The notes under the pieces: generated by a model
What the model saw: the letters and a program-made list of their open reading frames with translations, nothing else
Told to the model about the DNA's origin: nothing
Databases searched by the model: none
Program-made: the position numbers and the translations under genes
Source of the DNA: Candidatus Zhuqueibacterota bacterium
Lineage (GTDB): Bacteria; Zhuqueibacterota; Zhuqueibacteria; Residuimicrobiales; Krinioviventaceae
Direction: 5' to 3'
Length of the DNA: 53,504 nucleotides
Assembly (NCBI GenBank): GCA_034506455.1
Contig: JAPDPN010000004.1
Coordinates: 1 to 53,504, forward strand
Shown here: positions 1 to 23,771 of the stretch, piece after piece
How the letters are laid out: each line of letters starts with the position of its first letter
Position numbering within the stretch: the first letter of the stretch is position 1

Positions 1-1378
1 TTGGAAAAACATTTAAACGATAAAAGAGATCGGAGCGAAAATTGCCCTTATTCACCTCTTCCTGCAGGTCACGGTTGGTGGCGGCAATAACGCGCACGTC
101 CACTTTGATTTGCTTTGTGCTTCCCAAACGTTCAAAGGTACCGTTTTCCAGCACGCGCAACAGCTTTGCCTGAGTTTCGATGGGCATTTCACCGATTTCG
201 TCCAGGAAAATCGTCGAGCCGTCGGCCACTTCAAAGCGGCCGATCTGCCGAGTGAGCGCGCCGGTATAAGCGCCTTTTTCGCGACCGAAAAGCTCGCTTT
301 CCATGAGCGAGGCCGGCATTGCAGCACAATTGACCACTACCAATGGGCGGTCCTTGCGGGGACTCATACTGTGGATGTACCGCGCCAAAAGCTCCTTTCC
401 GGTTCCGGTCTCACCCAGAATTAGAACGGTGGAGGTGGTCTGTGCGACTTGCTTCGCCTGAGCCAGAATATTTTGCATAACCTTGCTTTCGGCAACAATA
501 TTGCCGTGCTCGGCAACCATGCGAATCTCATTGAGAAGATAAACGTTTTCCGCTTCGAGCTTTTCCTTCAGAAGGCGGATCTCTTCCAACGCGTCGCGCA
601 GCTTTTGCTCGGCTTGCTTACGTTCGGTAATATCCTGGACGATTCCGGATGCAAAAATAACCTCGCCTTTACTGTTTTCGATTCGATCTCCGGGATGAGC
701 CCAAACATGGATGATCTTATCTTTTCCGCGTCGCAGACGGAACTCGCATTCTTTAAACTTGTTTTCTTTTATAAAGGCTTGATGCACATTCAAAACGGTC
801 TCTCGATCCTCTTCATGAACGGTTGATTCAAGGAGCTCGTAGAGGTTGCCTGAAAATTTCCCATCGTCGATGCCGAAGATTCGAAAAAATTCTTCCGATC
901 CGCTAAATTGATTCGCAGCGAAATCCCAAGTCCAGTGTCCAAGATGAGCAATCGCCTGTGAACGCTTGAGCTGCAGTTCGCTGAGCCGGACCACTTCGTC
1001 CATCTTGTGCTTATAGAGCGCCATTTCGATGGTCGTACGCAAGGTCTGATCATCGAAGGGTTTGACGATATAACCGAACGTTTCGGCTTCTTTGGCGCGA
1101 AACAGGGTGGCGTCATCAGCATAGGCGGTCAGAAAGACAACCGGTCGATGGTACAATTCTCTAATTTTGATTGCCGCATCAATACCGTTCATCTCGCCGC
1201 TGAGACGAATGTCCATTAACACCAAGTCCGGCGCAAGATCGCCGGCTATTTCAACGGCTTTTTCGCCGCTCGTTGTTCGACCTAATACCTGATAACCAAG
1301 ATGGATAAGTCGACTTTTAATATCCTCAGCAACGACCGGCTCATCTTCGACAATAAAGATCTTGGAGTCTTTAGGCAT
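1..1378 (-). CDS. sigma-54-dependent response regulator (REC-PAS-AAA+ enhancer-binding protein); the C-terminal HTH runs off the window
   Basis: Absent from the ORF track because it has no stop in the window. I translated it from the ATG at 1378..1376. It reads MPKDSKIFIVEDEPVVAEDI...DLVLMDIRLSGEMNG (receiver with acceptor Asp), then a PAS-like middle region (HLGHWTWDF...GIVQDITERKQAE). The AAA+ module has Walker A GETGTGKE, the sigma-54 contact loop GAYTGA (GAFTGA type) and Walker B FLDEIGEM. It ends ...RVIAATNRDLQEEVNKGNFRSDLFYRLNVFP at position 2. Confidence 0.85.
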   Translation of the reverse strand, partial: MPKDSKIFIVEDEPVVAEDIKSRLIHLGYQVLGRTTSGEKAVEIAGDLAPDLVLMDIRLSGEMNGIDAAIKIRELYHRPVVFLTAYADDATLFRAKEAETFGYIVKPFDDQTLRTTIEMALYKHKMDEVVRLSELQLKRSQAIAHLGHWTWDFAANQFSGSEEFFRIFGIDDGKFSGNLYELLESTVHEEDRETVLNVHQAFIKENKFKECEFRLRRGKDKIIHVWAHPGDRIENSKGEVIFASGIVQDITERKQAEQKLRDALEEIRLLKEKLEAENVYLLNEIRMVAEHGNIVAESKVMQNILAQAKQVAQTTSTVLILGETGTGKELLARYIHSMSPRKDRPLVVVNCAAMPASLMESELFGREKGAYTGALTRQIGRFEVADGSTIFLDEIGEMPIETQAKLLRVLENGTFERLGSTKQIKVDVRVIAATNRDLQEEVNKGNFRSDLFYRLNVFP

Positions 1379-1530
1379 ATCGAGCTACCTGGTTTTGCAT
1401 AGACTAAATCAATATGACCATAGTGAGATTTAAAAGAATAGAGAATAATCTTGATGAAACCTGAAAAAAAACGTTTCCCAATCGACGAATCAAAAAGAGC
1501 AAAGTGTGGTCTCGGAATACCGTTTTATAT

Positions 1531-1588
1531 TACAAAAGCGGATTGTTAAAAGCAAGCTCGAAATCCTTTTCGACTTGAAAACAATCCG
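1531..1588 (-). terminator. putative terminator hairpin after the last tad-operon gene
   Basis: About 40 nt after the stop at 1631. A 9-bp stem, CGGATTGTT (1539..1547) with AACAATCCG (1580..1588), encloses a smaller TCGAAA/TTTCGA hairpin. On the minus strand it is followed by CTTTTGTAAT. Confidence 0.4.
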
Positions 1589-1630
1589 AGTGATTAAAAA
1601 ATTATAGATCTTTAAGTATGTTGGGAATTT

Positions 1631-2605
1631 TTAGAGAACCTTGGGAATGAACCGGTATCTGACGGCAGAGGCATAGTCCCGATAGGCGGGATCCTGCAAA
1701 AGCAGTTTTTCTTCAGCGATCGCCCGCCAAAATTGCCCTGCAATTATGAAAACTAAAAGAGCAATATTCCAAATACTGGTATTACCCAACACGTAGCCAA
1801 AGTAGAAGAAAATTTCCGCGCTGTAAAGCGGATGCCGAACGATCCGATAAGCGCCGCAACGCTGGATCGACCGGTTGGCCGGAATAATGCCGAAACTTCG
1901 TCCTAAGCTCCCGAGAGAAAAGATGACGCCGATGATACCGATGCTTTGTACGCCGATTGCAACCGCAAGAGGAACAACAGCGGAATGAGATGGACGAAAA
2001 CTCATGGCCGCCAACAGAACTGCAAACGGAATAAGCCAATCGAGAATTTTACGCGAAGTCTGCCTGCTTTCCCTTCGAATCAGAAAAAACACCATCAATA
2101 ATGAATTATGCACCAAGACCGCCATATTCAAAAAAGTGACCTCTTGGCGTAAAGCAAAAGTCAAGGCTAATACCAGGCGAAACCAAAAAACAGCCAAGAG
2201 AAAATTCAGCGGCCAATGGAGCAGGCTGCGCAGAGAATCGGGGTGAATTTTATGGCTCCTGTCGATTTCAATCTGCACGCGGGAGCCGACCTTTAGCCCG
2301 GCCGCAGTCGTCCAACCTGCCGCACCTTCAAGAACCGCCTGCGCAGCTTTAGGAAAGAAAACCATTTTCTTAGGTGCTATGTTTTGGGCAATCTCGATTA
2401 CTTTTCCATCAGCATCAACGGCCACTGCGTCGAGGGGATATCTCATTCCAAAGGTGTGAATACTCCGGCAGGGCGAAAAGAGCAGCAAAAGATTGCGCAA
2501 CGGCTCGTTGGTTCCCAATAAACCGACCGCCCGGCTGACAGGATTGGCGGCGTGAGCTATGATAAAAGGCAGGATTTTCTTATCCGGAAGAAGGGCAATC
2601 GGCAT
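1631..2605 (-). CDS. fusion protein: N-terminal DUF192-like domain plus C-terminal polytopic ICMT/PEMT-like membrane methyltransferase
   Basis: The first ~115 aa fit the DUF192 pattern (RAVGLLG...LLLLFSPCRSIHTFGMRYPLDAVAVDADGKVIEI...AVLEGAAGW..GLKVGSRV). The rest has about 5 hydrophobic helices and the ICMT-family signature YRIVRHPLYSAEIFFYFGYVLG. It starts 14 nt downstream of tadC on the same strand. Confidence 0.7.
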   Translation of the reverse strand: MPIALLPDKKILPFIIAHAANPVSRAVGLLGTNEPLRNLLLLFSPCRSIHTFGMRYPLDAVAVDADGKVIEIAQNIAPKKMVFFPKAAQAVLEGAAGWTTAAGLKVGSRVQIEIDRSHKIHPDSLRSLLHWPLNFLLAVFWFRLVLALTFALRQEVTFLNMAVLVHNSLLMVFFLIRRESRQTSRKILDWLIPFAVLLAAMSFRPSHSAVVPLAVAIGVQSIGIIGVIFSLGSLGRSFGIIPANRSIQRCGAYRIVRHPLYSAEIFFYFGYVLGNTSIWNIALLVFIIAGQFWRAIAEEKLLLQDPAYRDYASAVRYRFIPKVL

Positions 2606-2619
2606 AAACAGAATCAGCT

Positions 2620-3552
2620 TTATTTAGCAAAGGTATCGAGAATCATGATTACGGCAGGGCCGATGAGGACGATAAACAGAGCCGGCAGAATGAACATCAC
2701 CAGCGGCAGCAGCATTTTCACACTGGCCTTGGCGGCGTTTTCTTCTGCACGTTGATGAATTCTGGTCCGCAACGCCTCGGCTTGTGCGCGCAGGGTGCTT
2801 GCAATGCTGGTTCCCAGCTTATCGGCCATGATCAATGCACCGACCAGGATGCGCAGATCTTCAACTCGGTTGCGGTCGCTCATGCCTCGGAGTGCCTTCT
2901 CACGCGTCTGGCCTATTCTCAAGTCCTGAGCAGCGCGCAGCAGTTCCTGGCTAAGGGACTTGTTACGAATTCCCATATCCTGCCCGACGCGTTGAATCGC
3001 TGCATTGAGGCCTAAACCGGCCTCCACGCAAATGACCAAAAGATCCAACGCGTCGGGAAGCCCCATGGCAATTTCCCGCTGCCGTTTGTCTACCTTAAAG
3101 CGCAGCAAAATATCGGGCATGATAAATAAAGAGAGGGCGGAGGCGGAAGCCATCAGCAAAATCCAACTGAACGGACGCGTGCTGAACATGCCAAGCAAAA
3201 GGATCAGGAGAAAACCGCCGGCAGATGAAGCCATTTTAATGCCCATTAAGCGCAAATAAGCGGATTCCCCTTGGTAGCCTGCGGCAATCAGATCCGATTT
3301 CAGCTGGGATTCTTTTTTCAAGCTGCCTTTGGCAACACGGCCCAGCTCTTCCAAAAGCTCTTTGGTGTCGAAATGGCGCGGCCACTTGCGCGAATCAATA
3401 TCATTGGTGCTTTGCGATGAACGAATTAGGTTGCCGTTTTCGATCGCCTTCATGCGGGATAGAGCCGGATTGAAATGGGCTGCCAGAAAATTTAATCCAA
3501 GATAATAGATCACGAAAGAAGTAAGAAAAACTAATAGTAAAATCGCGCCCAT
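2620..3552 (-). CDS. tadC: Tad pilus platform protein TadC (T2SS F-family)
   Basis: A 310-aa polytopic membrane protein with a T2SSF-type cytoplasmic domain (LPDALDLLVICVEAGLGLNAAIQRV...). It sits in the tadA-tadB-tadC order. Confidence 0.8.
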   Translation of the reverse strand: MGAILLLVFLTSFVIYYLGLNFLAAHFNPALSRMKAIENGNLIRSSQSTNDIDSRKWPRHFDTKELLEELGRVAKGSLKKESQLKSDLIAAGYQGESAYLRLMGIKMASSAGGFLLILLLGMFSTRPFSWILLMASASALSLFIMPDILLRFKVDKRQREIAMGLPDALDLLVICVEAGLGLNAAIQRVGQDMGIRNKSLSQELLRAAQDLRIGQTREKALRGMSDRNRVEDLRILVGALIMADKLGTSIASTLRAQAEALRTRIHQRAEENAAKASVKMLLPLVMFILPALFIVLIGPAVIMILDTFAK

Positions 3553-3565
3553 CTTTTCGATCCGC

Positions 3566-4545
3566 TCACTGATATTTCACTTCGACAATTTTGTTAATCA
3601 TATAAAACCCGATTCCCTGCAAAATGCCGGCGGTGACCAACATATATTGGCCGATTTTTCGATGAAACATCGGCGTCAAATAGCCTGGACTCATCATGGA
3701 GATAATGAGAATAAAGGCTATAGGCAGAGCGCCTAATATCCAGCCCGACATCCGGCCTTGCGCCGTAAATGTTCGCATTTTACCCATCAGCTTGAATCGT
3801 TCACGGATGGTGGTGCCGATGTTTTCGAGAATTTCGTTCAAATTGCCGCCCGTCTCGCGCTGCAACAGAACCGCCGTCACGAACAAACGCAAGTCCGCAC
3901 TGTCGATGCGTTCGAGCAGATGATTAAAGGCAAGCTGCCAGGTAGCGCCGAGGTTATATTCCTCGACTGTCCGGCGGAATTCGACACTGATGGGATCTGC
4001 CGCCTCCTCGGCGACCATCTGCAGAGCGCGCGGAAACGCATGGCCTGCCCTCAGCGCTCCGTTGATCATATCGATGGCGTCGGGGAATCCGCGTATAAAT
4101 GCATGCAGTCTGGCTTTACGCTTTGTCAAGACATAGATCATGGGTGCATAAAACATAGCGCCTGTTGCTGCGCCCTTGAACAGAATATTGGTACTACGCA
4201 GCGTCAACATGAAGCCGACGGCGCCGCTGACAAGCATCAACAACACCAGTTGGCCGACGCGGATGCTTAACCCTGCCTGTTCTATCGTTCGGCTGAGCTT
4301 TTTCGCCAAATTTAAATGTTCGAGAATTTGATTGAGCAGCGGGATTTCGCTCATACTTTCATCGCGAATGAGCGATAATTCCTTTTCTTTTTTCTTTATC
4401 TCCACTACAGCTTTTTCGTATTCGCTCATTCGTTTTTTAATAACCGGTCCGCTTCCGAAGCGGTGCGAAAGTTTGAGCAGAATTGCCGCAAAGAGCACAA
4501 AAGAGGTCGAGAATACAAATAGGACAACCAGAATCGTCATCTTGG

Positions 4546-4561
<16 letters not shown>
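3566..4561 (-). CDS. tadB: Tad pilus platform protein TadB (T2SS F-family)
   Basis: A 331-aa membrane protein with a T2SSF domain ([25 protein letters not shown]...), immediately after cpaF. The ORF overlaps the cpaF stop by 16 nt, so the real start may be the Met at 4540 (MTILVVLF...). Confidence 0.8.
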
Positions 4562-6000
<1,439 letters not shown>

Positions 6001-6006
6001 CGCAGC

Positions 6007-7215
6007 TTACCCTTGCCGCTTAAAAAATCCTGAAAAAAGACCCGGTTTTTGCTGGGGTTTACCCTTGATCTCCCTTTCCTTCCCGATCAGTTGCAGAGCA
6101 ATATCGACCAAGTCTTCGCTCATTTTGCAGTTGGGCGATTTGAGCACAATCGGCACGCCGTGATTGACGCAAGCCGTCACCACACCGATGTCATGCTCCG
6201 TCACCCTTCCGAACACCGGCCAATGCAGAACTTTTTCCATCTCTGCAGGATTCAAACCGGCATAGTGTTCATAACGGTTGAGAACGACTAGTATTTTTTC
6301 CTGCGGATAATTCAACTTATTAAATAGCTCCAAGCACCGCTTGCTGTTATAGATCGTCGGCAAATCGAGCGTGGAAATCAATAGGATCTTGTCCGAAGCA
6401 TCCAAAGCTTTCAGAGAAATATCATTAAAGAACGGATGATTATCGATTAAAATAAGCTCAAAATTTGTATTAAGAACTTCCAAGAGGCTGCCGACCTGTT
6501 GAGCCGTCACCATTTCGGCTTCTTCGATGCGGAAAAGGCCGGGGAGGAGATAAAGTCCGGAGGCATGCCGCGGCAGCGTTTTAAGAAGAATATCGATGTC
6601 CAGCTTTTCGATATTCTGGACCACATCAAAAAGAGAATACTTGCTGCGTAGGTTGAGAAACAACGCGTCGTGTCCGGACTGCAGATTGAGATCGATCAGC
6701 AGAACCTTGGATTCCGGCATTTCCTGGGCGCAAACCACGCCGACATTGACTGAAAGCGTTGTACAGCCTACGCCGCCTTTGGCGCCGAAAAAGCTGAAAA
6801 TGCGCCCTTTGCCGCTAATCTGGCGTTCGAGTTCTTCATGAAATTTAACGGCCGATTGGATGACCGAATTGATCTCCTCGGCGTCGTAGGGCTGCGAAAG
6901 GAAATCCTTGATGCCGATGCGAATGGCGCTGCGGATCAGTTCGGGCCGCAGCTGCGGCGAGGTAATGATCATGTACGGCTGCCTCTCCGCCTGCAGCCGC
7001 ATAATCTTTTCCGCCAGCCTCAAGCCGGCGCCCTCTTCCGGCACCAGATTGATGATAATAATGTCCGGCGCATAAACCGGAAGGCTCTCGAACAACGCCT
7101 CACCCCAGCTGCTCTCCGATTTGACATCGTACCCGCTGCGAGAGGAGAGCAGATTGACCAGCTGGGTTCGTGAACGCTCGTCACGGTCGATAACAAGTAT
7201 TTTGACGGAATCCAT
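6007..7215 (-). CDS. tadZ: TadZ/CpaE pilus localisation protein (atypical receiver plus ParA/MinD-like ATPase)
   Basis: The N-terminal receiver-like fold has Asn at the acceptor position (DIIIINL). The central deviant Walker A is GAKGGVGCTT. It lies directly upstream of cpaF. Confidence 0.8.
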   Translation of the reverse strand: MDSVKILVIDRDERSRTQLVNLLSSRSGYDVKSESSWGEALFESLPVYAPDIIIINLVPEEGAGLRLAEKIMRLQAERQPYMIITSPQLRPELIRSAIRIGIKDFLSQPYDAEEINSVIQSAVKFHEELERQISGKGRIFSFFGAKGGVGCTTLSVNVGVVCAQEMPESKVLLIDLNLQSGHDALFLNLRSKYSLFDVVQNIEKLDIDILLKTLPRHASGLYLLPGLFRIEEAEMVTAQQVGSLLEVLNTNFELILIDNHPFFNDISLKALDASDKILLISTLDLPTIYNSKRCLELFNKLNYPQEKILVVLNRYEHYAGLNPAEMEKVLHWPVFGRVTEHDIGVVTACVNHGVPIVLKSPNCKMSEDLVDIALQLIGKEREIKGKPQQKPGLFSGFFKRQG

Positions 7216-7244
7216 TGTGCCTGCAACTGTCCTAAAAGATGGTT

Positions 7245-8216
7245 TTAACCGATACGCACAATTTTGCGCAGCATGGAGTAATTATTGCCGTTGTTCCGCG
7301 TACCATTGGCCAAAATGTTCATAAACACGCCGATGACGTCGCCTTTGCCCGACATCCCTTCAAGAAAAAAAGCGCCGATGGCATTGACCTGCACGTTGCC
7401 GCGGCCGCCTGATGGAGGTCTGTTCGGATCGTACATCGGCACGATTAGGATTCTCGGGCTTGTGTAGCCGGGAAAAGCAGAATTTACAACACGCCCATTC
7501 GACCAAACAGCCTGCGGGTCCCTCTCGATGATTTCAGTGACGCCCTTAGTAGTAGGTCCATCCATATTTCCAGGTTCGATCTGGAGGATGTCGCCGATTT
7601 CTACATACGAGGAGGTGCCGTACATGAGATTGTTTAGATAAGCAGAGGCTCCGGTTACGGGATTGCCGCGGTTGACCGGCGGAAAGTCGACAGGATATCG
7701 CCAGCAGGGAGAAATGCCGCTCTCTCCCTTGGCACCGGACTTTAGCACCACACGATCGCCGTTTTGCCACAAGCCGTTCGGCACGCAAAACGGCGCCATG
7801 CCGGTAACCCCTTTGATGGAAAACATCTCCGCCGTTGCCTCAGCGGTCAGCAGCTTTTGCGGCCTGCCGGCCAGACGTAGAAAAAACGTATTCACAGTCC
7901 GCCTGGCCTGCACACGTATGCGTGTATTAGTGGGAAAGCTCACGTCTTCGGCAGTTATGATCACCGGTTGGCCGGCGCATGTGTTCAGAGCAGCATAACG
8001 AATTGCAGCGTTCCGCGCCTCCGTTTGGCCTTGCAGCAGCGCTGCGGCTCCTGCCAAAGACGCCGCATCCACCGCACCTTGCAATTGCTTGTCGGCCACT
8101 AAAATGTATCCGATATCCGTTGCCATCGCCGCAAACAGTAGAAAACTCAGCATGGCGAAAGCAGTAAACATAACAACGTTTCCACGTTCATCCCGGCAGA
8201 ATCTGGTCCCCAACAT
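7245..8216 (-). CDS. TadG/TadE-like (Tad_N) pseudopilin-type protein, paralog A
   Basis: The N-terminus GNVVMFTAFAMLSFLLFAAMATDIGYILVADKQLQGAVDAASLAGA matches the TadE/G-like N-terminal helix. I recognise no vWA motif. It aligns along its whole length with the next gene. Confidence 0.65.
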   Translation of the reverse strand: MLGTRFCRDERGNVVMFTAFAMLSFLLFAAMATDIGYILVADKQLQGAVDAASLAGAAALLQGQTEARNAAIRYAALNTCAGQPVIITAEDVSFPTNTRIRVQARRTVNTFFLRLAGRPQKLLTAEATAEMFSIKGVTGMAPFCVPNGLWQNGDRVVLKSGAKGESGISPCWRYPVDFPPVNRGNPVTGASAYLNNLMYGTSSYVEIGDILQIEPGNMDGPTTKGVTEIIERDPQAVWSNGRVVNSAFPGYTSPRILIVPMYDPNRPPSGGRGNVQVNAIGAFFLEGMSGKGDVIGVFMNILANGTRNNGNNYSMLRKIVRIG

Positions 8217-8245
8217 AATATCATCCCTCTCCTCTTTGTACCCAA

Positions 8246-9205
8246 TTACCCGATAAGGCTCACCTTATGTAATAGGGAATATTCTTCTCCGCGCGTACCA
8301 TTTATAATAATGTCCATAAACACACCGATGACGTCTTTGCCCGACATGCCTTCCAGAAAAAAGGCGCCGAGGGCGTTGACCTGGACATTGCCTCGTCCTC
8401 CTGCCGGAGGGTTGTTCGGATCGTACATCGGCACGATCAGGATTCTTGGACTGGTGTAACCGGGAAACATCGAGTTGATCACGCGCCCGTTTACCCACTG
8501 AGCATCTTTGTCTTGTTTGATGATATCATTGACGGCGGAGGAAGTAGGTCCGTCCATATTTCCGGGTTCGATCTGCAGGATATCGCCTACTTCGACGTAT
8601 GAGGGACAGCCGTTGATGAGATTATTTCGAAAAGCAGCGGCTCCGGTTACGGGATTGCCGCGGTTGATCGGCGGAAAGTCGACCGGGTAACGCCAGCAGG
8701 GGAAAATGCCTGTTTCTCCGGTGCCGCCGCTTTTCAGCACCACTCGATCGCCGTTTCGCCACAAGCCGTTCGGTACACAAAACGGAGCCAATCCGGTCGT
8801 ACCTTTAATGTAAAAGATCTGCGCCGTTGCTTCAGATTGCAGCGTTTTTGTAGGAAAATTGACGACACGAAGAAAAAATGTATTAAAGGTACGCTGTGTT
8901 TGGACACGTATTTGCGTTGGGGTAGGAAACGTCACCTGGCCGGATGCGAGTTGAACAGGCTGGCCCATGCAGGTGTTCTTGGACGCTATATTGACGGCTT
9001 CATTAAGAGCTTCATTTGTACCATAGATCAACTTGGCAGCCCCGGCCAAGGCGGCTGCGTCCACCGCCCGCTGCAGCTGTTTATCGGCAACCAAGATGTA
9101 GCCGATATCTATGGACATCGCCGCAAAAACTGCGATCGCAAATACCGAGGCGGCGACAATAACCAACGTATTGCCGCTTTGGCTTTTCCAAAATTTCCCA
9201 AACAT
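8246..9205 (-). CDS. TadG/TadE-like (Tad_N) pseudopilin-type protein, paralog B
   Basis: The N-terminus is GNTLVIVAASVFAIAVFAAMSIDIGYILVADKQLQRAVDAAALAGA. It shares long blocks with paralog A (APFCVPNGLW.NGDRVVLKSG, CWRYPVDFPP.NRGNPVTGA, GDILQIEPGNMDGPT, PRILIVPMYDPN.PP.GGRGNVQVNA.GAFFLEGMSGK). Confidence 0.65.
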   Translation of the reverse strand: MFGKFWKSQSGNTLVIVAASVFAIAVFAAMSIDIGYILVADKQLQRAVDAAALAGAAKLIYGTNEALNEAVNIASKNTCMGQPVQLASGQVTFPTPTQIRVQTQRTFNTFFLRVVNFPTKTLQSEATAQIFYIKGTTGLAPFCVPNGLWRNGDRVVLKSGGTGETGIFPCWRYPVDFPPINRGNPVTGAAAFRNNLINGCPSYVEVGDILQIEPGNMDGPTSSAVNDIIKQDKDAQWVNGRVINSMFPGYTSPRILIVPMYDPNNPPAGGRGNVQVNALGAFFLEGMSGKDVIGVFMDIIINGTRGEEYSLLHKVSLIG

Positions 9206-9218
9206 GATGCCCTCCCGT

Positions 9219-10310
9219 TTAATTTTTCAAACTGCGAATTTTAGCGGGAAGCCCTTCTTTGTCAACCGGTCGGGCAATTTCCGGCGAAAGAAGGATCAGC
9301 AATTCCGTTTCCTTGTTTTGATACCTGCGGCTCCCGAACAGGATACCTAGGACCGGTATTTTGCTGATAAAGGGCAACCCGGAAATTTTTTCAGTCGTTT
9401 CACGATTCAATAACCCCCCAATAATGAGAAACTTGCCCTCAGCCAATTCTACTGTTGTTTCCGCGCGGCGAGTAATAAGCGCCGGAATTCTGAAACCGCT
9501 CATAATGACGCCATTTTCATAATCTAAAGAACTGACTTCGGCATTAACTTTGATTTTGATTAAAGAAGAATCGATAATATGCGGCTGAAATTTGAGCTTG
9601 ATGCCGAATTCTTTATATGTAATTGTAACACTCTGCATTATTCCGGACCCTGAGACGACCGGAACAGGCACTTCGCCGCCGGCAAGAAAGCTTGCCTCGC
9701 CGTTATCAATAGCGCTTAACGTCGGTTTTGCCAAAGTCTTAAGCAAATTTCTCTCTTCCAATGCTCGAATGATGGATGAAATATTGTTTTGTGGAATTTT
9801 GAAAAACAAATCCACCATTTCATTCAAGATGAAAGGATCATTCGGCGTATTGACTTTGCCGGAAAAGACGCCGATTTCCGTCGAGCCTCCTGATGATTGG
9901 GAAGTTTTTATGTTTTTCGCCCAAAGATTGATGCCGAACTCGCGCAACGCTTTACGATCCACTTCTGCAAAGCGCACGTAAAGCATAATTTGCTTGCCCG
10001 AGCTGGGTTCAGCAACCATCACTTTATATATTTTATAATTTTCACCCTCATCCCAAACAATGACGCTGGTGCTTCCCAACGCTTTCCCGTTGACAAGCAC
10101 CTGGCGCGGTGAAACCACGGTTGCCTCGATGAGTTCAGGATTAGCCAACGATATCCGTTTAATGGAAGTGGGAAAATCCAATATCAATGATTGACCCACG
10201 GTTACGGTAACGGTCTGCGTTTGAACTTGCGCGCCTAAACTGAACAAAGGGAGTAGGAGCGCTGCTGCGAAAACCCTCAAGATGCCGATGCAATAACGAT
10301 GACCAACCAT
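9219..10310 (-). CDS. rcpA: Tad secretin CpaC/RcpA
   Basis: It has a signal peptide, an N-terminal pilus-secretin N domain (VTVGQSLILDFPTSIKRISLANPELIEATVV...) and a secretin core (LAKPTLSAIDNGEASFLAGGEVPVPV...KIPVLGILFGSRRY). Confidence 0.85.
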   Translation of the reverse strand: MVGHRYCIGILRVFAAALLLPLFSLGAQVQTQTVTVTVGQSLILDFPTSIKRISLANPELIEATVVSPRQVLVNGKALGSTSVIVWDEGENYKIYKVMVAEPSSGKQIMLYVRFAEVDRKALREFGINLWAKNIKTSQSSGGSTEIGVFSGKVNTPNDPFILNEMVDLFFKIPQNNISSIIRALEERNLLKTLAKPTLSAIDNGEASFLAGGEVPVPVVSGSGIMQSVTITYKEFGIKLKFQPHIIDSSLIKIKVNAEVSSLDYENGVIMSGFRIPALITRRAETTVELAEGKFLIIGGLLNRETTEKISGLPFISKIPVLGILFGSRRYQNKETELLILLSPEIARPVDKEGLPAKIRSLKN

Positions 10311-10354
10311 GCTGCTTCTGCTCCCGTAGTGATGACCGGCTGATGAAAGTCCTA

Positions 10355-11275
10355 TTAATCCGCACCGAAGGTGATCCGTTCACGCTTATTGGCGTAGAGA
10401 ATCTCCACTGTTTTTCCGGGAATGACCGGTTCAACTTTGGCGGATGTATTCGATGACGACTGCTTTACAGAGGTTGAAGCTGAAGGAGCCGGGGGTTTGG
10501 CTGCCGGTGGAGAAATCGGTTCTGAAGTCTTGAGATTGCCGGCGGAAGACGCAAAATAACCCGCCGGCATCAGCTGACCGAGACGTACACCCGGAGTAGA
10601 AGCTTGATCGTGATCGGCGGAATTCCGCAACGCCAAACGAATTCTCCCTTCCGTTTCCGCCAACGCCAGTTTTTCCGCCTGCTCGGGAGTCACCAGTAGG
10701 GTAGCGTGCTGACCTTCGGCAGGAGCTTCGCCGCCGCTCTGTCCGAATCTTTGATCAATTGCCAATACCAGAACATCCTCGAGGATGATTTTTGTCGCGG
10801 CGGCTTCCTTTTCCATCGATGAGGAAACCGTTACCAGTACATCCACCCGCGAGTTGGGGAAAATGAAGCCGCTGACCCCGGAGACAGGATCGATGGCAAC
10901 CGACATGGCCCGCATGCCGAGAGGAATGAGCCCGGAAACGCCGCCGCTGGAACCGAGCGGCGCCAGTTTACCTTCCAGAATAATTTCTCCCGTAAAAATG
11001 GAGGTTTTAACGACGCGATCGGTCAGAACAGCCGGATCACTAAAGGCACCCATGGGGACCAGTTCAGCCGGAAACTCCGCGACCTTGAGATTTTGCGGAG
11101 TAATTTTCGTTCCCGGAGTCAAATCCATCGTCGCTACCACCGCAGAGGTAAGCACGACCTTTGGTTTTTGTGCCGCCTCCTGCTGTTTTTGAATAAAGCG
11201 CATAACCAGCACGGTGGTAAACAGACTGAGCACCAATGCTAATGGGATGAGGATCTTTTGCTGGAAAAAGCGCAT
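10355..11275 (-). CDS. rcpC: CpaB/RcpC pilus assembly protein
   Basis: It has an N-terminal membrane anchor, a SAF-like segment (VVATMDLTPGTKITPQNLKVAEFP) and an RcpC-type body. A Pro/Ser-rich linker precedes a short C-terminal domain. It sits between tadE and the secretin. Confidence 0.8.
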   Translation of the reverse strand: MRFFQQKILIPLALVLSLFTTVLVMRFIQKQQEAAQKPKVVLTSAVVATMDLTPGTKITPQNLKVAEFPAELVPMGAFSDPAVLTDRVVKTSIFTGEIILEGKLAPLGSSGGVSGLIPLGMRAMSVAIDPVSGVSGFIFPNSRVDVLVTVSSSMEKEAAATKIILEDVLVLAIDQRFGQSGGEAPAEGQHATLLVTPEQAEKLALAETEGRIRLALRNSADHDQASTPGVRLGQLMPAGYFASSAGNLKTSEPISPPAAKPPAPSASTSVKQSSSNTSAKVEPVIPGKTVEILYANKRERITFGAD

Positions 11276-11293
11276 GCACCCGTCTCCGCTGCC

Positions 11294-11701
11294 TTAATTT
11301 TCCCAATGCATGGTGGCGGTTTGCGAAAGTACTCGAGGCCCAAAACCGGGTATTATGCCCTGCGTGAGCGGAACATAGTTCAATCTTACTTGGCAGGATA
11401 CCTCGCCATTGGCATTCGGTCCGCTGATGGTGATGACGGCACCGTTAATGCGCGCAGCGGTGAGTACGTTCTGCGCCGCCGCCGTCGCTTGGGTAACTGA
11501 AGGCGCCGTTATCGCCGCTACCCGTGCTCCCTCGTACGCCGCACTGGTGATGACATTCATGGTCATCCACATACGGCCAAATTCAATGATGGCAACTATA
11601 ATGAGCATAAGCAGCGGCACAACAAGAGCAAATTCGACCACGGATTGGCCTTTTGTGCCTCGAATAAGTTTACGCAATCTGTTCATGGCCTGGTTTCCCA
11701 T
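11294..11701 (-). CDS. tadE: TadE-like pseudopilin
   Basis: Processing-type motif KG/QSVVEFALVVPLLMLIIVAIIEFGRMW in a 135-aa protein. Confidence 0.75.
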   Translation of the reverse strand: MGNQAMNRLRKLIRGTKGQSVVEFALVVPLLMLIIVAIIEFGRMWMTMNVITSAAYEGARVAAITAPSVTQATAAAQNVLTAARINGAVITISGPNANGEVSCQVRLNYVPLTQGIIPGFGPRVLSQTATMHWEN

Positions 11702-12204
11702 AAAATTTTTAGAAAAAAAGCAAAAACGCCTCCCGATATGGCGATTCCATAGGGGAGAGTCTCTGCATTAGGTTTGCACTTGCCTTCAAAAATCGACGTC
11801 TCATCGCTCGTTTTTACATCTATCGATTCCGTTTTCATCGAATTTATCCGGCGTCTTTTAAAGAATAATTGAATACTGGCCATGAGACCGCCTATTAGTA
11901 TAGTATAAAACAGTGCAACTGCAGCAAAGCGAATGCCCAGCCAACATCCGACTGCGGCTCCCAATTTCACGTCACCCGCGCCCATTGCATTGAAAAAATA
12001 GAGCAATAGAAAAAGACCGCCTCCTACCGCCGCTCCCAAAAATGAATTCATTAGACCGTCAATACCGAAATAGATTCCTTGTAGAGCCAAGCCTCCCAAT
12101 AACAACGGCATTGTGACAGAATTCGGTATTCGGCGTTCACAATAATCAAAATAAGCCGCCGTTAATAGCGGAACCGTAATGAGAATCGGCGAAATAAGAA
12201 GCAT
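11683..12204 (-). CDS. tadV: Flp prepilin peptidase (A24 family, TadV/CpaA type)
   Basis: A 173-aa polytopic protein with both catalytic-Asp contexts (AAYFDYCERRIPN and NAMGAGDVKLGAAVG). It has no methyltransferase domain, as expected for the TadV type. Confidence 0.85.
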   Translation of the reverse strand: MLLISPILITVPLLTAAYFDYCERRIPNSVTMPLLLGGLALQGIYFGIDGLMNSFLGAAVGGGLFLLLYFFNAMGAGDVKLGAAVGCWLGIRFAAVALFYTILIGGLMASIQLFFKRRRINSMKTESIDVKTSDETSIFEGKCKPNAETLPYGIAISGGVFAFFLKILWETRP

Positions 12205-12290
12205 AAGTTTCTAAAAAATAACATTCTTTTAAAATAATATAAATTGAATATTTTAATATTGCAATATAAACTTTTTGTCGCTTTTCATGC

Positions 12291-12494
12291 TTAGAACGCA
12301 TTTGCGATGCTGGTAATGAGGTCCGAGTTTGTATTGCCGATCAGCATCAATCCTACTATCGCAATCAAAGCAATTAAAAGCAAAAGAAGCCCATACTCAC
12401 CCAATGTCTGCGCTTTTTCATTTCGCCAATGCCGCCGAAACAACATCAAGGAAACATCCATTCTTTTTTTCAAATTTTTCCACCATGTTTGCAT
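12291..12494 (-). CDS. divergent Flp-family pilin-like protein (flp3)
   Basis: The core QTLGEYGLLLLLIALIAIVGLMLIG aligns with the flp1/flp2 motif QTLSEYALILVLIAVVAIAAVTLLG. The start is moved to the second ATG (12494), which is preceded by AAAGGAGAGG. The ORF track starts it at 12515. Confidence 0.6.
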   Translation of the reverse strand: MQTWWKNLKKRMDVSLMLFRRHWRNEKAQTLGEYGLLLLLIALIAIVGLMLIGNTNSDLITSIANAF

Positions 12495-12757
12495 TGTTCC
12501 GCCTCTCCTTTGCATAATTGTCCTCTTTGTTTGTCGTAATTATTGGACGGCGCATGTCCGAGAATTTAGACAAAGGAGCGTCCAATTTTCAGACCATGTT
12601 TTTCAATTTATAAACCATAAGAATCTAAAATTGTTCATGTCCTGAAAAAGAGAATGAAACCAATCTATCGACAAACCGATAGACCTAAAAACGGCGAAGC
12701 GCGAAGGTTGTTATGGGGATTGAAAAATGAGGGATGAGGAGGTAAAAAGCTGAAAAG

Positions 12758-12880
12758 CGGAAGAATTTACGCTCATACTAATAAAGCCGCAAACATACCT
12801 TAACCTCCACACGCATTCATTTGCATCACCTTACGGCTTCGCTCGTTTGCTTTCCTGCCTTTAATGAGCAAATTCTTCCG
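12758..12880 (-). other. long stem-loop (candidate attenuator or RNA-stability element) between flp1 and flp3
   Basis: A 17-bp helix with one 2-nt bulge: 12758..12776 (CGGAAGAATTTacGCTCAT) pairs with 12864..12880 (ATGAGCAAATTCTTCCG). There is an inner AAGCCG (12784..12789) / CGGCTT (12834..12839) helix. U-rich sequence follows on both strands. Confidence 0.35.
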
Positions 12881-12954
12881 TTTTTGCATGTCAATGGGCT
12901 CCTGCCCATCCGCGCCCGCACGGAGGCGGACACGGATGGGGTAGGAGGGAACTC

Positions 12955-13107
12955 TTACAGGGCGGCAGCGATGTCGTTCAGCACCTGGCTGATCTGGTTG
13001 CCGAGCAGCGTAACCGCGGCAATGGCAACAACGGCGATCAGTACCAGAATCAACGCGTACTCGGACAGCGTCTGCCCTTCCTCACGAACAAACAGGCTCT
13101 TCAACAT
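12955..13107 (-). CDS. flp: Flp pilin (flp1), 50 aa
   Basis: Absent from the ORF track because it is under 60 aa. The reverse-strand translation is MLKSLFVREEG/QTLSEYALILVLIAVVAIAAVTLLGNQISQVLNDIAAAL*, with the canonical G/xxxxEY Flp motif. The RBS AAGGAAGGAG lies upstream. Confidence 0.9.
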   Translation of the reverse strand: MLKSLFVREEGQTLSEYALILVLIAVVAIAAVTLLGNQISQVLNDIAAAL

Positions 13108-13248
13108 GGTTCATGCTCCTTCCTTTGGGTTTCAGATTAAAGATCTCGCCCTTTTTCAGCGCTTAGAGGGCAGCGGCAATGTCGTTCAGCACCTGGCTGA
13201 TCTGGTTGCCGAGCAGCGTAACCGCGGCAATGGCAACAACGGCGATCA
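12971..13248. repeat. 70-nt perfect direct repeat (12971..13040 = 13179..13248) inside the tandem flp genes
   Basis: The string atgtcgttcagcacctggctgatctggttgccgagcagcgtaaccgcggcaatggcaacaacggcgatca occurs twice, offset by 208 bp. Confidence 0.95.
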
Positions 13249-13321
13249 ATACCAGAATCAGGGCGTACTCGGACAACGTCTGGCCCTCTTCCTTCACAAA
13301 CAAGTTTCTGAGCTGCAACAT
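13163..13321 (-). CDS. flp: Flp pilin (flp2), 52 aa
   Basis: Absent from the ORF track. The translation is MLQLRNLFVKEEG/QTLSEYALILVLIAVVAIAAVTLLGNQISQVLNDIAAAL*. The RBS is AAGGAGAG. The predicted mature part is identical to flp1. Confidence 0.9.
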   Translation of the reverse strand: MLQLRNLFVKEEGQTLSEYALILVLIAVVAIAAVTLLGNQISQVLNDIAAAL

Positions 13322-13431
13322 GGTCGTCTCTCCTTCTTTTTTAGTTTAAACTTTTCGGCTCCAAATTGACACTCTTAAAAATCAACCGAAGCCTCCTGAA
13401 CCCTTGTTGATTGCTCTCGCTATTATTCTTT

Positions 13432-13447
13432 AGCAATGCTAATGCCA
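13432..13447 (-). promoter_or_regulatory. candidate sigma-54 (-24/-12) promoter of the flp/tad operon
   Basis: The minus strand reads TGGCATTAGCATTGCT, against the consensus TGGCACG-N4-TTGCW. Both the GG and GC dinucleotides are present with the exact spacing. It lies about 110 nt upstream of the flp2 ATG. Confidence 0.6.
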
Positions 13448-13954
13448 AACTGATCCTTTTTGAATCCCTTAAAGAAGAAGTGATTATAACATATTGATAT
13501 TAATAATAATTATAAAATCGAAAGAGAATCGATATTTATATTTGCTGAATAAAATAATTAAAAATTAGACACGATATATCGAGTGATGCACGAAATATCG
13601 TTTTTCATAATTTAAAATCTCCAATGCGCTAAACGAATTAAAGCTATTTGATTGAGTTTGTCAAAAAACATCATGACGAATCGACAACAAACAATGACAA
13701 ATTGAGCGAAAATCTTTAAGCTTAAAAAACAGTATCGGAATGGTGCATATAATATTCTGAAAAAACAAGAATTAAAATTGATTTATTGTAATGAAATTAA
13801 ATTAAAAATGTAACGTCTTGGTATAACAAAGTTGAAACTGAAATACAATAATGAAACAGATATTGGAAGCAGAGAACTTGATGTAAACACTTTTAAGCTT
13901 ACCTGGCGCTATTTTTTAAGCTAACTTTAGCATTAATTAATGAATTAAGGCATA

Positions 13955-15322
13955 ATGATTGCAATTAATAATATACAATATGGTTTTAAATTTTCTAATT
14001 CGCACCATAAGAACAGCTTGCGACTGCAGACCATGCACAATAACGATTCGAATTTAACCGGTTGCTATTTCCCAAATACCCATAGCCTGTCTGTGCTACT
14101 GCAGAGGATTACTTTCAGGGCAATGGACTTTTTGCAGGCTGAGGACGTTATTCTCTTCCTCAAAGATGGTGAGACAAAAAAGTATACCATTGCCTACGCT
14201 GCCACTCGAGCGGGCGAGACCTTTGCGCCCAAAGCGGAGCTTTTCGACTTTGCCGCCGCTAAAGAGTGCGTACGTTATCGTAAATGGGTGCAAACAGATC
14301 AGCGAACTCCTGAGGGCGTTCGCCCGTGCTTGTGGATTCCGTTATGCTGCGAAAAGGAATGCGTCGGCTTATTGTATCTAATTGATTGTCTGCCCATGCC
14401 TTTTGAGCGCAGCTTGGCAGAGCAAATGAACGCATTTGCCGAATTGTCTGCCAAAGCAATATACAATCATCAAGGGCCGATTGAAAAAGCGAAGGAACAT
14501 CAGCAGGCTGAAACTCGACGCGCTCAGCAGATGGAATCGGCAGGGGAGATGAAAGGTGTCGCTGCAGCTAAAATCGGTCACGAAATCAATAATTTCGTCG
14601 CTGCTGTTAACGCCAACCTTGAGCTTGCATTGGATTTGCTCAACAATGACGGAGAAACCGGCGAAATAAAAGAGCGGATTCTTAAAGCCCAGCAGCTTTT
14701 GATGCAGATTGCACCATTAACCGGCGGCTTGATGTGCAGCTGCATGATGCAGCCGGCTTTTGAAGTAAAAAGTGTTAATCAAGTCGTCAAGGGCTTTATC
14801 GAGTCAATCAAGCCTGTCTATCAGCGCACCGGCGTCAAGTTTCTCTGTCGCCTGCAGCCTAATCTGCCTCTGCTGCGGCTGGATCCACGCCTGCTGAGTC
14901 AGGTTTTGTTCAATCTCTGCAAAAACGCCGTTGAGGCACGGAAGGACGCGCAAATTGTCATCTCAACTCGGTTCGATGCCTGCGAAAGATGCATTCTTTT
15001 AACCATACAGGACAACGGCCCCGGGTTTTCTCCCGAAAAGCTGCAGCGTTTGTTTGCAGAACCATTTACGGATAAGGCAAACGGGCACGGCCTGGGATTG
15101 GCAATCTGCCGCGATATCATAGAAAAACACGGCGGCAGCATTCAGGCCGCCAACGCGGAATGTGGCGGCGCCTGCTTTACCATTCGCCTGCCTCTGCCGC
15201 ACCATGAAGATTATAAGGGATTGGAATTTGAACGCATCGAGCAACCTTGCAGACCCTACGACGATGCGAAGCATCAAAATCCGCGCTCATTGGTGACGCT
15301 TTCCCACGAAAAAGTCAATTAG
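13955..15322 (+). CDS. soluble sensor histidine kinase (GAF-like N-domain, HisKA, HATPase_c)
   Basis: H-box GHEINNFVAAV, N-box LFNLCKNAVEA, G1 IQDNGPGF and G2 GHGLGLAICRDIIEKHGG. I see no TM segments. The start is uncertain because the first ~26 codons are AT-rich; an alternative ATG lies at 14033. Confidence 0.85.
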   Translation: MIAINNIQYGFKFSNSHHKNSLRLQTMHNNDSNLTGCYFPNTHSLSVLLQRITFRAMDFLQAEDVILFLKDGETKKYTIAYAATRAGETFAPKAELFDFAAAKECVRYRKWVQTDQRTPEGVRPCLWIPLCCEKECVGLLYLIDCLPMPFERSLAEQMNAFAELSAKAIYNHQGPIEKAKEHQQAETRRAQQMESAGEMKGVAAAKIGHEINNFVAAVNANLELALDLLNNDGETGEIKERILKAQQLLMQIAPLTGGLMCSCMMQPAFEVKSVNQVVKGFIESIKPVYQRTGVKFLCRLQPNLPLLRLDPRLLSQVLFNLCKNAVEARKDAQIVISTRFDACERCILLTIQDNGPGFSPEKLQRLFAEPFTDKANGHGLGLAICRDIIEKHGGSIQAANAECGGACFTIRLPLPHHEDYKGLEFERIEQPCRPYDDAKHQNPRSLVTLSHEKVN

Positions 15323-15328
15323 CTCCTC

Positions 15329-16729
15329 TTATCTTCCGCAGGTCAAATCGATCATTCGCAAAATTGCCCGGCGGCAAACCGGGCAAAAGTCCGTTAAGGA
15401 TTTGCTGAACATACGGCAGTTCAACGCCGGTCTGTAAATTCCGGTCGAGGCATACCCTGCGCCTTCGAAAGAGCCGACAATTCCAGTGAGATTAGGATCA
15501 CTGAGTATTGCGTCAAGCTGCTTTTGCAGTTCCCCGCGCTTTTTCGGGTCTTTTTCTTTCGCCGAGGCAAGAGCCAAAGAATCGAATGCCGTCTTGTTCC
15601 AGGGCGTGGGGACCAAAACGCCCTGGGTAAGCATTTTTCTCCATTTGCAGCCGCCGTCCGCGTTCAGCGTCGAAATGTTCGGTTCCCAAGGTTCGACATC
15701 AAGAGGATAAAGGTCATTGTAGGCGACTACCGAATTATAGTATTCATCGGCCAGGCCGGCAAAAGAATGACCGAATTCATGGACAAACACATACTCGGCC
15801 CACCATTCCGGCTCCTTTGTTTCTCTACCTGCATAGCACACAGCGAATTGATTGAAAATTCCGCCGCCGCCATATTGAGATGAGTTGATGAGCACATAAA
15901 CGGCGTCATAAGGCGCGGCTGCGGCGATGTCGCGCAGGGCCTGATTTTCCGGACAAAGAACATAGCGCTGGACGTTAAACGTGTTGTAGCGGCAGCCGAG
16001 AGCTGTCTCTTTCCAAATCCCTGCGCGCGGATCGTCGATGCCCGAATTTTGGGAAGGCGCCTCGATGAGACGAATATTGAAATCGGTGCGATGTTCCTTG
16101 AACGGTTCAACCGAAAACAGGACATCGACAAATCGGCGTGCGTCGCGGCGCAGCTTGCCCATTTCTTTGCGGTGATAGCCGTCGCCGAGAATCACCAGAT
16201 CCACTTTGCTTTTAGGGTCGCCGTTGATGACCAGATTGCGGACAAGGCCGCGGGTACGGCAGGGCTCGCGCCGGATATCAGTCGAGGCCGGATCGACGGC
16301 CAAGGACCAAAGAGGCGCAAACTCGTTGCGGCGATTTCGCTTCAAAAATTCGAGCCGCACCGGTTTGCGGGGAAAGGGGATTCGCACGGATTCGTGCATG
16401 GCTCGCCGTAGTCCGTTTAAGGCTTCTTCCGTAGTCTGCCATTCGCCGAATACCGAGCAAAAACCGTGTGCATAAAGAAGCTGACCGCTTTCCTGATCAT
16501 ACACCTGCACGCAATACTGACCGAGATCGAGCGTTTCGGTCAATCTCGCGGTTCGGCCCGGCCAGGCTCCCTCTTCGATGAGCGCCGCCAGGCCGATCTC
16601 TTCTACTCGGCCGTCGCCGCAGTGAACATAATCGACGCGCAGTGTTTTGTCTTCAAACCAGTGATAAAAACCGTTTTCTTTGGCGATGATAATGCCTGAA
16701 AGAGTAAAAAGAAACACAACAATTTTCAT
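15329..16729 (-). CDS. secreted zinc metallopeptidase, M64 (IgA-peptidase-like) family
   Basis: HExxH in the context YVFVHEFGHSFAGLADEY, plus an M64_N-like N-domain. The start is moved to MKIVVFLFTLSGIIIA (a signal peptide) at 16729, preceded by GAGGAAAG. The longer track ORF would overlap the upstream gene. Confidence 0.8.
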   Translation of the reverse strand: MKIVVFLFTLSGIIIAKENGFYHWFEDKTLRVDYVHCGDGRVEEIGLAALIEEGAWPGRTARLTETLDLGQYCVQVYDQESGQLLYAHGFCSVFGEWQTTEEALNGLRRAMHESVRIPFPRKPVRLEFLKRNRRNEFAPLWSLAVDPASTDIRREPCRTRGLVRNLVINGDPKSKVDLVILGDGYHRKEMGKLRRDARRFVDVLFSVEPFKEHRTDFNIRLIEAPSQNSGIDDPRAGIWKETALGCRYNTFNVQRYVLCPENQALRDIAAAAPYDAVYVLINSSQYGGGGIFNQFAVCYAGRETKEPEWWAEYVFVHEFGHSFAGLADEYYNSVVAYNDLYPLDVEPWEPNISTLNADGGCKWRKMLTQGVLVPTPWNKTAFDSLALASAKEKDPKKRGELQKQLDAILSDPNLTGIVGSFEGAGYASTGIYRPALNCRMFSKSLTDFCPVCRRAILRMIDLTCGR

Positions 16730-16737
16730 GACTTTCC

Positions 16738-23734: not shown

Positions 23735-23771
23735 ACGACATTGTCGGGTTTTGGTCGTTACACGAGACGGC

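Follow-up and report, generated by a model that had tools for sequence, protein, structure and literature searches.

Which regulator, promoter and sensor set the production of a Tad/Flp (type IVc) pilus in an uncultured bacterium of the candidate phylum KSB1? This question is raised by a stretch of 53,504 nucleotides from Candidatus Zhuqueibacterota bacterium (GenBank assembly GCA_034506455.1, contig JAPDPN010000004.1, positions 1 to 53,504), hereafter called the window, whose coordinates are used throughout. Its minus strand carries, from 1 to 13321, an unbroken run of tad/Flp genes recognized with Pfam, at the end of which lies the gene of a sigma-54 enhancer-binding response regulator, and a histidine kinase is encoded divergently from the first pilin gene, flp2. 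Judged by the profile searches (Pfam and NCBIfam) used for the gene calls, the operon for the Tad/Flp pilus is complete, and its host is a KSB1-like member of the Fibrobacteres-Chlorobi-Bacteroidetes (FCB) group. We propose that the response regulator probably activates a sigma-54 promoter in front of the pilin genes. The features that bear on this proposal are the following.

1..1378 (-): sigma-54 enhancer-binding response regulator, REC-PAS_3-AAA+, cut by the window edge at residue 459
12899..12947 (-): GC-rich hairpin of 49 nt directly after flp1; free energy (dG) -37.9 kcal/mol, z-score -5.3
13432..13447 (-): sigma-54 -24/-12 element TGGCATTAGCATTGCT, TGGCAT-N5-TTGCT; GG at 13446-13445, GC at 13434-13433
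13487..13499 (-): match to the integration host factor (IHF) consensus WATCAANNNNTTR, read from the sequence, between the candidate activator sites and the promoter
13572..13581: promoter-proximal candidate activator site, palindrome CGATATATCG, centre 131 bp upstream of the -24 GG
13591..13600: distal candidate activator site CGATATTTCG, 19 bp from the proximal site
13955..15322 (+): soluble GAF histidine kinase, divergent from flp; Pfam GAF and HATPase_c

The pilin promoter and its candidate activator

The original prediction had placed a -24/-12 element upstream of flp, and a systematic scan finds the same site and no other. TGGCATTAGCATTGCT has the orientation of the pilin genes, stands 126 nt ahead of the ATG of flp2, and is the sole sequence in the 53.5-kb window that matches TGGCAC-N5-TTGCW with at most one mismatch (it has one); a relaxed -24/-12 pattern again returns this site alone. 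By chance, 1.9 such matches would be expected per window, but only about 0.01 if the match must also have the right strand and fall in the 630 bp that precede flp. Transcription would start near 13421, giving a 5' untranslated region of about 100 nt, and a sigma-70 scan found no convincing promoter between flp and the -24/-12 element and activator sites. Both candidate activator sites are forms of the 10-bp palindrome CGAnATnTCG, and a longer form, CGATATWTCGTG, occurs as two exact copies, both in the intergenic region upstream of flp and nowhere else in the window.

Two related genomes allow this region to be compared. One locus, L108 (GCA_034505495.1), comes from almost the same organism, with a response regulator of 97% and a kinase of 84% identity, and has the order glycyl-radical enzyme, M64 peptidase, kinase, divergent flp to tad genes, DUF192 fusion and response regulator. 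A diverged relative, GCA_900174595.1, contributes the two contigs FWPV01000293.1 and FWPV01005168.1: L109 holds an M64 peptidase, a kinase of 35% identity and the first half of the tad locus with three flp genes, and L117 holds CpaF, TadB, TadC, the DUF192 fusion and a response regulator of 65% identity. These two contigs are likely to derive from one locus of one genome. The predicted bracketing of the operon by response regulator and kinase is kept in L108 and in L109/L117, and in this form it characterizes a narrow sub-clade of two near-identical genomes and one diverged one.

When the regions upstream of flp in the window, L108 and L109 are aligned, three features stand out from a poorly conserved, AT-rich background, namely the TGGCAT together with the TTG of the -12 element, the paired CGAnATnTCG palindromes, and the ribosome-binding region. 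The -24/-12 element is identical in L108, and the aligned position in L109 reads TGGCATGATGGTTGTC (TGGCAT-N5-TTGT). The site pair, its 19-bp spacing and the -24 element persist in L109 despite the diverged DNA and the 35%-identical kinase, and the distance from palindrome centre to the -24 GG is 131 bp in the window, 130 bp in L108 and 131 bp in L109. The same palindrome recurs right after the response regulator gene in L108 and L117, followed by GGCAT-N5-TTGT and then by a gene for an ABM-domain protein, and at these promoters the distance is 128 bp (L108) and 126 bp (L117). Candidate palindromes are thus found at an offset of 126-131 bp in five promoters of three loci. Palindromes that suit a dimeric Fis-type helix-turn-helix and keep a constant offset of some 130 bp to a -24/-12 element, before two operons and in two diverged genomes, would be the signature expected of an enhancer-binding protein and its regulon, and this repeated module is the strongest evidence that the response regulator really controls flp. 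The CGAnATnTCG motif was not found in related loci with other enhancer-binding proteins. L117 has a single site of this type upstream of the response regulator gene itself, without a -24/-12 element, and the site is absent from that position in the window and L108. The match to the IHF consensus is a weak lead only, because it lies in AT-rich DNA and has one mismatch in L108.

The second operon, which in the window's own genome would lie past position 1, spans 19641..20960 of L108 and 6027..16026 of L117. In the relatives it encodes the ABM protein, stand-alone receivers, a REC-HATPase, a zinc-ribbon protein, a T2SSE ATPase with an MshEN domain and two PAS kinases. The MshE-N-type ATPase is a type IV pilus ATPase and possibly binds cyclic di-GMP.

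The regulator itself is, from its domains and motifs, a canonical NtrC-class sigma-54 activator in which all catalytic motifs are present. The earlier description of a REC-PAS-AAA+ protein with a GAYTGA loop just past the operon end is confirmed by Pfam (Response_reg 82 bits, PAS_3 41 bits, Sigma54_activat 243 bits) and by the translation, which contains the phospho-acceptor Asp56, the Walker A and B motifs GETGTGKE and DEIGE, and the GAYTGA loop. Its gene follows the DUF192 fusion gene after a gap of 250 bp. The C-terminus lies outside the window; the L108 orthologue (97% identical, 601 aa) displays AAA_lid_14 and HTH_8 (22.5 bits) there. The protein scores below every NCBIfam equivalog cut-off, with FlhA, AtoC, NifA and NtrC as best partial matches. 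Orthologues of at least 65% identity were found at the end of this tad locus only, and the next homologue, at 47% identity, is not linked to tad. A search of species-representative genomes with the regulator returned no orthologue, only relatives by the AAA+ domain, which had no tad genes nearby except for one secretin-like match (L088).

Gene identities, motifs, sites and their conservation, all drawn from sequence and comparison, suggest a model that predicts DNA binding by the regulator, phosphotransfer to it, a need for sigma-54 and a role for the hairpin. Pilin transcription would start at the sigma-54 promoter at 13432..13447, which would need an ATP-driven activator. This would be the REC-PAS-AAA+-HTH response regulator, whose gene (1..1378) lies at the opposite end of the operon. 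The regulator would bind the two CGAnATnTCG sites (13572..13600) through its Fis-type helix-turn-helix and, by DNA looping and through its GAYTGA loop, touch the sigma-54 holoenzyme about 130 bp downstream. Phosphorylation of Asp56 would control its activity, with the soluble GAF kinase (13955..15322) as the most likely phosphate donor, and a second signal may enter through its PAS domain. The stable, conserved hairpin after flp1 would probably raise the level of pilin mRNA above that of the assembly genes, and a second sigma-54 promoter, before the ABM/REC signalling operon of the relatives, appears to be driven by this regulator as well.

The partner kinase, the hairpin and rival explanations

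The product of the divergent kinase gene was described at the outset as a cytoplasmic GAF-HisKA-HATPase kinase, and the sequence bears this out: besides the GAF and HATPase_c domains it has an H-box (IGHEINN) and N, G1 and G2 boxes, and no hydrophobic or transmembrane segment was detected. Its true start is probably the GTG at 14093, as in the 84%-identical relative from L108. Among the NCBIfam families it comes closest to AtoS and ZraS, with scores well short of their cut-offs; AtoS and ZraS kinases pair with NtrC-class regulators. That the GAF kinase is the partner of the response regulator has, in our estimate, an even chance, and the case for it is synteny in two lineages, L108 and L109/L117, where the two genes are placed as in the window, with other kinases nearby. 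The receiver of TadZ was considered as an alternative target of the kinase and rejected, its acceptor Asp being replaced by Asn and its conserved Lys by Gln.

The hairpin after flp1 separates the pilin genes from the assembly genes, is nearly invariant in L108 and in the diverged L109, and has no U-tract. It is a candidate element whose likely role is partial termination (an attenuator) or stabilization of the pilin transcript; a "termination cascade" has reportedly been described for the tad locus of A. actinomycetemcomitans. The 440-bp spacer between flp1 and flp3 (12520..12955) contains further islands that are conserved in L109. An Rfam scan of 12150..14000 returned no known RNA, and no conserved open reading frame was found in the spacer; a small basic reading frame at 12800..12889 was rejected as the cause of the conservation, its frame being broken in L109.

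How firmly does the pilin promoter belong to this regulator? Elsewhere in the tad clade, the locus of L110-L113 is followed by genes for another enhancer-binding protein, of REC-PAS-PAS type, and a HisKA_2 kinase; L116 has a receiver-less one upstream and TGGTATTTAAATTGCG before a small reading frame that precedes flp; and the clade members from reference genomes, L119-L129, have no enhancer-binding protein within reach. Several observations weigh against the proposed control of flp and its generality. In L110 and L113 flp is preceded by a sigma-70-like TTGACA-17-TATATA with no -24/-12 element, and L114 and L115 have neither an enhancer-binding protein gene nor a -24/-12 element. The -12 element of L109 and of both ABM promoters is TTGT, which departs from the canonical TTGC. 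As L108 comes from almost the same organism, the support for conservation comes down to a single relative that is truly independent, and in that relative the linkage of L109 to L117 is inferred, because the assembly has more than 7000 contigs and a second tad locus. Since close members carry other enhancer-binding proteins or none, the wiring is not intrinsic to the tad clade, and the idea that sigma-54 control is so was dropped, the canonical GG-N10-GC being absent in L110, L113, L114 and L115. It could then be argued that response regulator and kinase are mere neighbours of the tad genes, that the regulator serves the ABM/REC operon or other targets only, and that flp is transcribed from an unrecognized promoter of the sigma-70 family, the -24/-12 element being fortuitous. 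One match of such quality is expected by chance in the window, related tad loci manage without an adjacent enhancer-binding protein or a -24/-12 element, and the sigma-70 scan may miss promoter types peculiar to the host phylum. However, a match within the 630-bp region and on the right strand has a chance expectation two orders of magnitude below one, the palindromes at flp and ABM share their offset in both diverged genomes, and the relaxed -24/-12 pattern lies upstream of flp in 7 of the 12 clade loci against 0.013 expected per 800 nt searched. We therefore regard this explanation as improbable.

If the response regulator does drive the sigma-54 promoter of flp, it may still receive its phosphate from elsewhere, for example from one of the PAS kinases or the REC-HATPase encoded past the regulator gene in relatives, with the GAF kinase serving another regulator. 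The GAF kinase gene lies 12.5 kb from that of the regulator and is not co-transcribed with it, the kinase changes much faster than the regulator between relatives (35% against 65% identity), and further kinases follow just past the regulator gene in relatives (REC, REC-HATPase, REC and two PAS kinases in L117; a stand-alone REC in L108), so that another kinase could be the partner. Yet the GAF kinase stays divergent from flp in both relatives, its core resembles AtoS and ZraS, and the sole other receiver in the operon, that of TadZ, lacks the phospho-acceptor Asp; on balance we consider a different partner rather unlikely. A further alternative concerns the reach of the promoter, which might serve flp2 and flp1 only, while a constitutive promoter of their own, within the 440-bp spacer, accounts for most transcription of flp3, tadV and the genes beyond. 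The position of a very stable, conserved hairpin straight after flp1 and the length of the spacer, with its conserved islands, would fit such a division, as would the "termination cascade" reported for A. actinomycetemcomitans, but the hairpin has no U-tract and a promoter scan of the spacer gave no site above background except a weak one at 12264..12236. We hold this arrangement to be possible, though short of an even chance; it would refine the proposal of a regulator-driven sigma-54 promoter rather than exclude it, and if it were true the two-component system would tune the supply of pilin and not the synthesis of the machine.

Beyond the clade, an enhancer-binding protein is encoded within 10 kb in 10 of 47 CpaF-centred loci with full flanks from other phyla. 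In about seven loci, most of them from Acidobacteriota, flp-like genes are preceded at 72-145 nt by sigma-54-like sites with at most two mismatches (background 0.05 per 400 nt). Together with the 7 of 12 clade loci, the Acidobacteriota sites indicate that sigma-54 promoters before Flp pilins are recurrent, with an activator that varies by lineage. Loci with such elements, 82-133 nt before flp genes, are L004, L011, L012, L020, L034, L039 and L051, from Acidobacteriota and other groups, several of which also encode an enhancer-binding protein; TGGCACATGCGTTGCG stands upstream of flp in L020, and L039 has three copies of TGGCAA-N5-CTTGCT ahead of its tandem flp genes. L200, the other tad locus of the FWPV01 assembly, has TGGCATATAGATTGTA at 5752..5767, about 580 nt upstream of flp, again with TTGT at -12 and without CGAnATnTCG sites.

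Gene content of the operon and its neighbourhood

All 16 gene calls of the original prediction, including the two tadG paralogues and the terminal DUF192/ICMT fusion of a gene-complete operon, were upheld by the Pfam and NCBIfam searches. From the promoter onwards the operon reads as follows.

13163..13321 (-): flp2, Flp pilin, first gene of the operon; Pfam Flp_Fap 30.3 bits
12955..13107 (-): flp1, Flp pilin with the motif EEGQTLSEYALILVLIAVVAI; Flp_Fap 30.9 bits
12291..12515 (-): flp3, third and weaker Flp-like pilin gene; Flp_Fap 16 bits
11683..12204 (-): TadV/CpaA prepilin peptidase, 173 aa; Pfam Peptidase_A24 69 bits
11294..11701 (-): TadE pseudopilin; Pfam TadE 63 bits
10355..11275 (-): RcpC/CpaB; Pfam RcpC 111 bits and SAF
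9219..10310 (-): RcpA/CpaC outer-membrane secretin; Pfam Secretin 140 bits and T2SS-T3SS_pil_N
8246..9205 (-): TadG-like protein, paralogue 2; Pfam Tad 33.2 bits
7245..8216 (-): TadG-like minor pilin/assembly protein, paralogue 1; Pfam Tad 33.5 bits and Tad_C
6007..7215 (-): TadZ/CpaE, pseudo-receiver and ParA/MinD-like ATPase; Pfam Response_reg and AAA_31/CbiA
4546..6000 (-): TadA/CpaF pilus ATPase; Pfam T2SSE 218 bits
3566..4561 (-): TadB platform protein; Pfam T2SSF 57 bits
2620..3552 (-): TadC platform protein; Pfam T2SSF 71 bits
1631..2605 (-): closing gene of the operon, fusion of DUF192 with a multi-pass membrane methyltransferase domain of PEMT/ICMT-like type; Pfam and hydrophobic segments

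The locus thus encodes the ATPase, two T2SSF proteins, TadZ, the secretin with RcpC, Flp pilins with an A24 peptidase, TadE and TadG, the set that defines a Tad/Flp (type IVc) system. The pilins flp1 and flp2 score slightly below the Flp_Fap cut-off of 32.2 bits; both have the processing motif G/QTLSEY (EEG/QTLSEYALILVLIAVVAI) followed by a hydrophobic helix, and their mature parts are identical. In flp3, Ala replaces Gly at the -1 cleavage position, in an AQTLGEY motif that is again followed by a hydrophobic segment. Homologues of flp3 are present in L108 and L109, the L109 copy with the canonical Gly, and the true start of flp3 is probably downstream of 12515. TadV is a dedicated A24 prepilin peptidase without a methyltransferase domain. 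RcpC/CpaB exceeds the NCBIfam pilus_cpaB equivalog cut-off (226.8 against 71 bits), and the best NCBIfam match of TadA/CpaF is the TadA family at 353 bits, slightly below the cut-off of 373. The two TadG-like paralogues are 68% identical in alignment, and paralogue 1 has a hydrophobic segment at its N-terminus. In the receiver-like domain of TadZ (6841..7215) the acceptor position, occupied by Asn in the window, holds His in relatives, or Asp in L116. No separate TadF or second TadE/F-type gene was recognized with Pfam among the reading frames of the locus, and none of these frames matches the families of TadD (a TPR lipoprotein) or RcpB/CpaD. TadD and RcpB/CpaD are accessory, non-mandatory Tad components, and membership in the Tad class stands for that reason despite the missing matches.

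As to lineage, CpaF was uninformative as an anchor for relatives, its best matches being 66% identical and spread over Acidobacteriota and many other phyla. The TadG-like protein has only 42 database relatives, of which the closest named one belongs to candidate division KSB1, and a metagenome scan with TadG led to five loci, four of them already in our set.

The DUF192 fusion closes every tad locus of the window's clade. A DUF192-domain gene also stands directly after tadC in the tad loci of many phyla (L119-L198): among the 73 reference-genome loci with a DUF192 match, TadC ends at most 1 kb upstream on the same strand in 40, and a fusion of DUF192 with a PEMT/ICMT-like domain occurs in 12 reference-genome loci. 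A single literature search found no paper tying DUF192 to Tad pili. Tentatively, and with more doubt than confidence, a wider reading may be put forward: the response regulator would head a small, lineage-specific sigma-54 regulon in which a shared module, often with TTGT at -12, couples the Tad pilins to the ABM operon, and, as a separate matter, DUF192 would be an unrecognized Tad component. If so, the DUF192 gene that closes the operon, here fused to an ICMT/PEMT-like methyltransferase domain, would represent a widespread part of Tad systems.

Next to the kinase gene, at 15329..19957, lie genes for an IgA-peptidase-like metallopeptidase of family M64 and for a PFL-like glycyl-radical enzyme with its radical-SAM activase; the M64 gene has the same position beside the kinase in L108 and L109. 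Farther on, the window encodes a second, stand-alone membrane methyltransferase of the PEMT/ICMT family (23772..24512) and a Type ISP restriction-modification enzyme with N6_Mtase and Type_ISP_C domains (29484..32582), opposite which a 916-aa reading frame (29568..32318) is probably an artefact of high G+C content. The host also encodes proteins with C-terminal sorting domains of the type IX secretion system (24683..27724 and 28016..29320) and a PorV-like protein (33269..34321). Two large reading frames have no Pfam match, one of 410 aa (22616..23848) and one of 1185 aa (34361..37918); the latter adjoins the PorV-like gene and TonB-dependent receptors.

Comparison with known systems

Set beside the canonical Tad loci (flp-tadV-rcpCAB-tadZABCDEFG in A. 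actinomycetemcomitans; pilA-cpaA-F in Caulobacter), the operon has an essentially classical order and the same core components. Unlike them, it has two TadG paralogues and a terminal DUF192-methyltransferase-like fusion, and no TadD, RcpB/CpaD or second TadE/F was recognized in it. Two-component systems are found at other tad loci. PprA-PprB, encoded beside the tad locus of P. aeruginosa, is said to activate its flp/tad genes, and PprB belongs to the NarL/LuxR class and is not a sigma-54 activator. Beside the tad locus of Pectobacterium, the OmpR-type system ECA0785/0786 activates the flp/tad genes (PMC3767616). The window case resembles both in having a two-component system next to the tad locus, but ECA0785 has an OmpR-type domain and is no sigma-54 activator.

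A wiring in the style of PilS/PilR-RpoN had been suggested for the window. PilS senses within the membrane, and sensing of this kind cannot apply here because the window kinase is soluble and without transmembrane segments. The type IVa pilin gene pilA is controlled by PilS-PilR-RpoN in Pseudomonas aeruginosa, Myxococcus and Geobacter (PMC3333781, PMC6058289). Both systems have an NtrC-class regulator, a -24/-12 pilin promoter and a kinase gene linked to pilus genes. However, the window pilus is of class IVc (Tad) and not IVa, its regulator has an additional PAS domain, and the kinase and regulator genes stand at opposite ends of the operon, 12.5 kb apart, rather than as a pilSR pair. The label thus suits the step from response regulator to sigma-54 and no more than that, given a soluble GAF kinase and a regulator without PilR orthology.

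For an adhesion pilus of the uncultured candidate phylum KSB1, the present analysis offers a testable regulatory model in which promoter, sites, regulator and candidate kinase are named; to our knowledge, nothing is known of gene regulation in KSB1. Small leads for research on Tad pili come from the conserved hairpin and from the DUF192 gene that recurs behind tadC, and the understanding of Tad pili and of sigma-54 activators in general is unchanged by the window case.

The closest precedent is DVU2114 of Desulfovibrio vulgaris Hildenborough, a sigma-54-dependent two-component response regulator whose targets in DNA-affinity-purified chip (DAP-chip) experiments are the Flp pilin genes DORF39640-DVU2116 (Rajeev et al. 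2011, PMC3333781). The authors likened the genes downstream of DORF39640-DVU2116 to the Caulobacter cpa/Tad machinery and found that a few related species have kept the DVU2114 motif in front of their pilin genes (PMC3333781). A later study of the sigma-54 regulome assigns to DVU2114 a "Pili" regulon that comprises DORF39640-DVU2129 (Kazakov et al. 2015, PMC4641369). The original claim that the characterized Tad regulators are of other classes therefore fails, since DVU2114 is a sigma-54 regulator with Flp pilin genes at a Tad locus among its targets (PMC3333781, PMC4641369), and the window wiring is not new in kind, because wiring of this kind had already been reported at the Desulfovibrio Tad locus. 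In both, the gene of a sigma-54 response regulator stands beside a Tad-type locus; upstream of the Flp pilin genes lies a binding motif of DVU2114 in the one and a pair of candidate activator sites in the other. The two differ in host, Desulfobacterota as against a KSB1-like member of the FCB group, and in the nature of the sites, those of DVU2114 having DAP-chip binding and those of the window being read from DNA sequence. The two regulators are compared here by description, and the closest homologues of the window regulator are not Desulfovibrio proteins. With the KSB1-like and Acidobacteriota loci, sigma-54 control of Flp pilins appears to be wider than the single Desulfovibrio case, and what is particular to the window is the extra PAS domain of its response regulator, a soluble GAF kinase whose gene diverges from the pilin promoter, and the uncultured FCB-group host.

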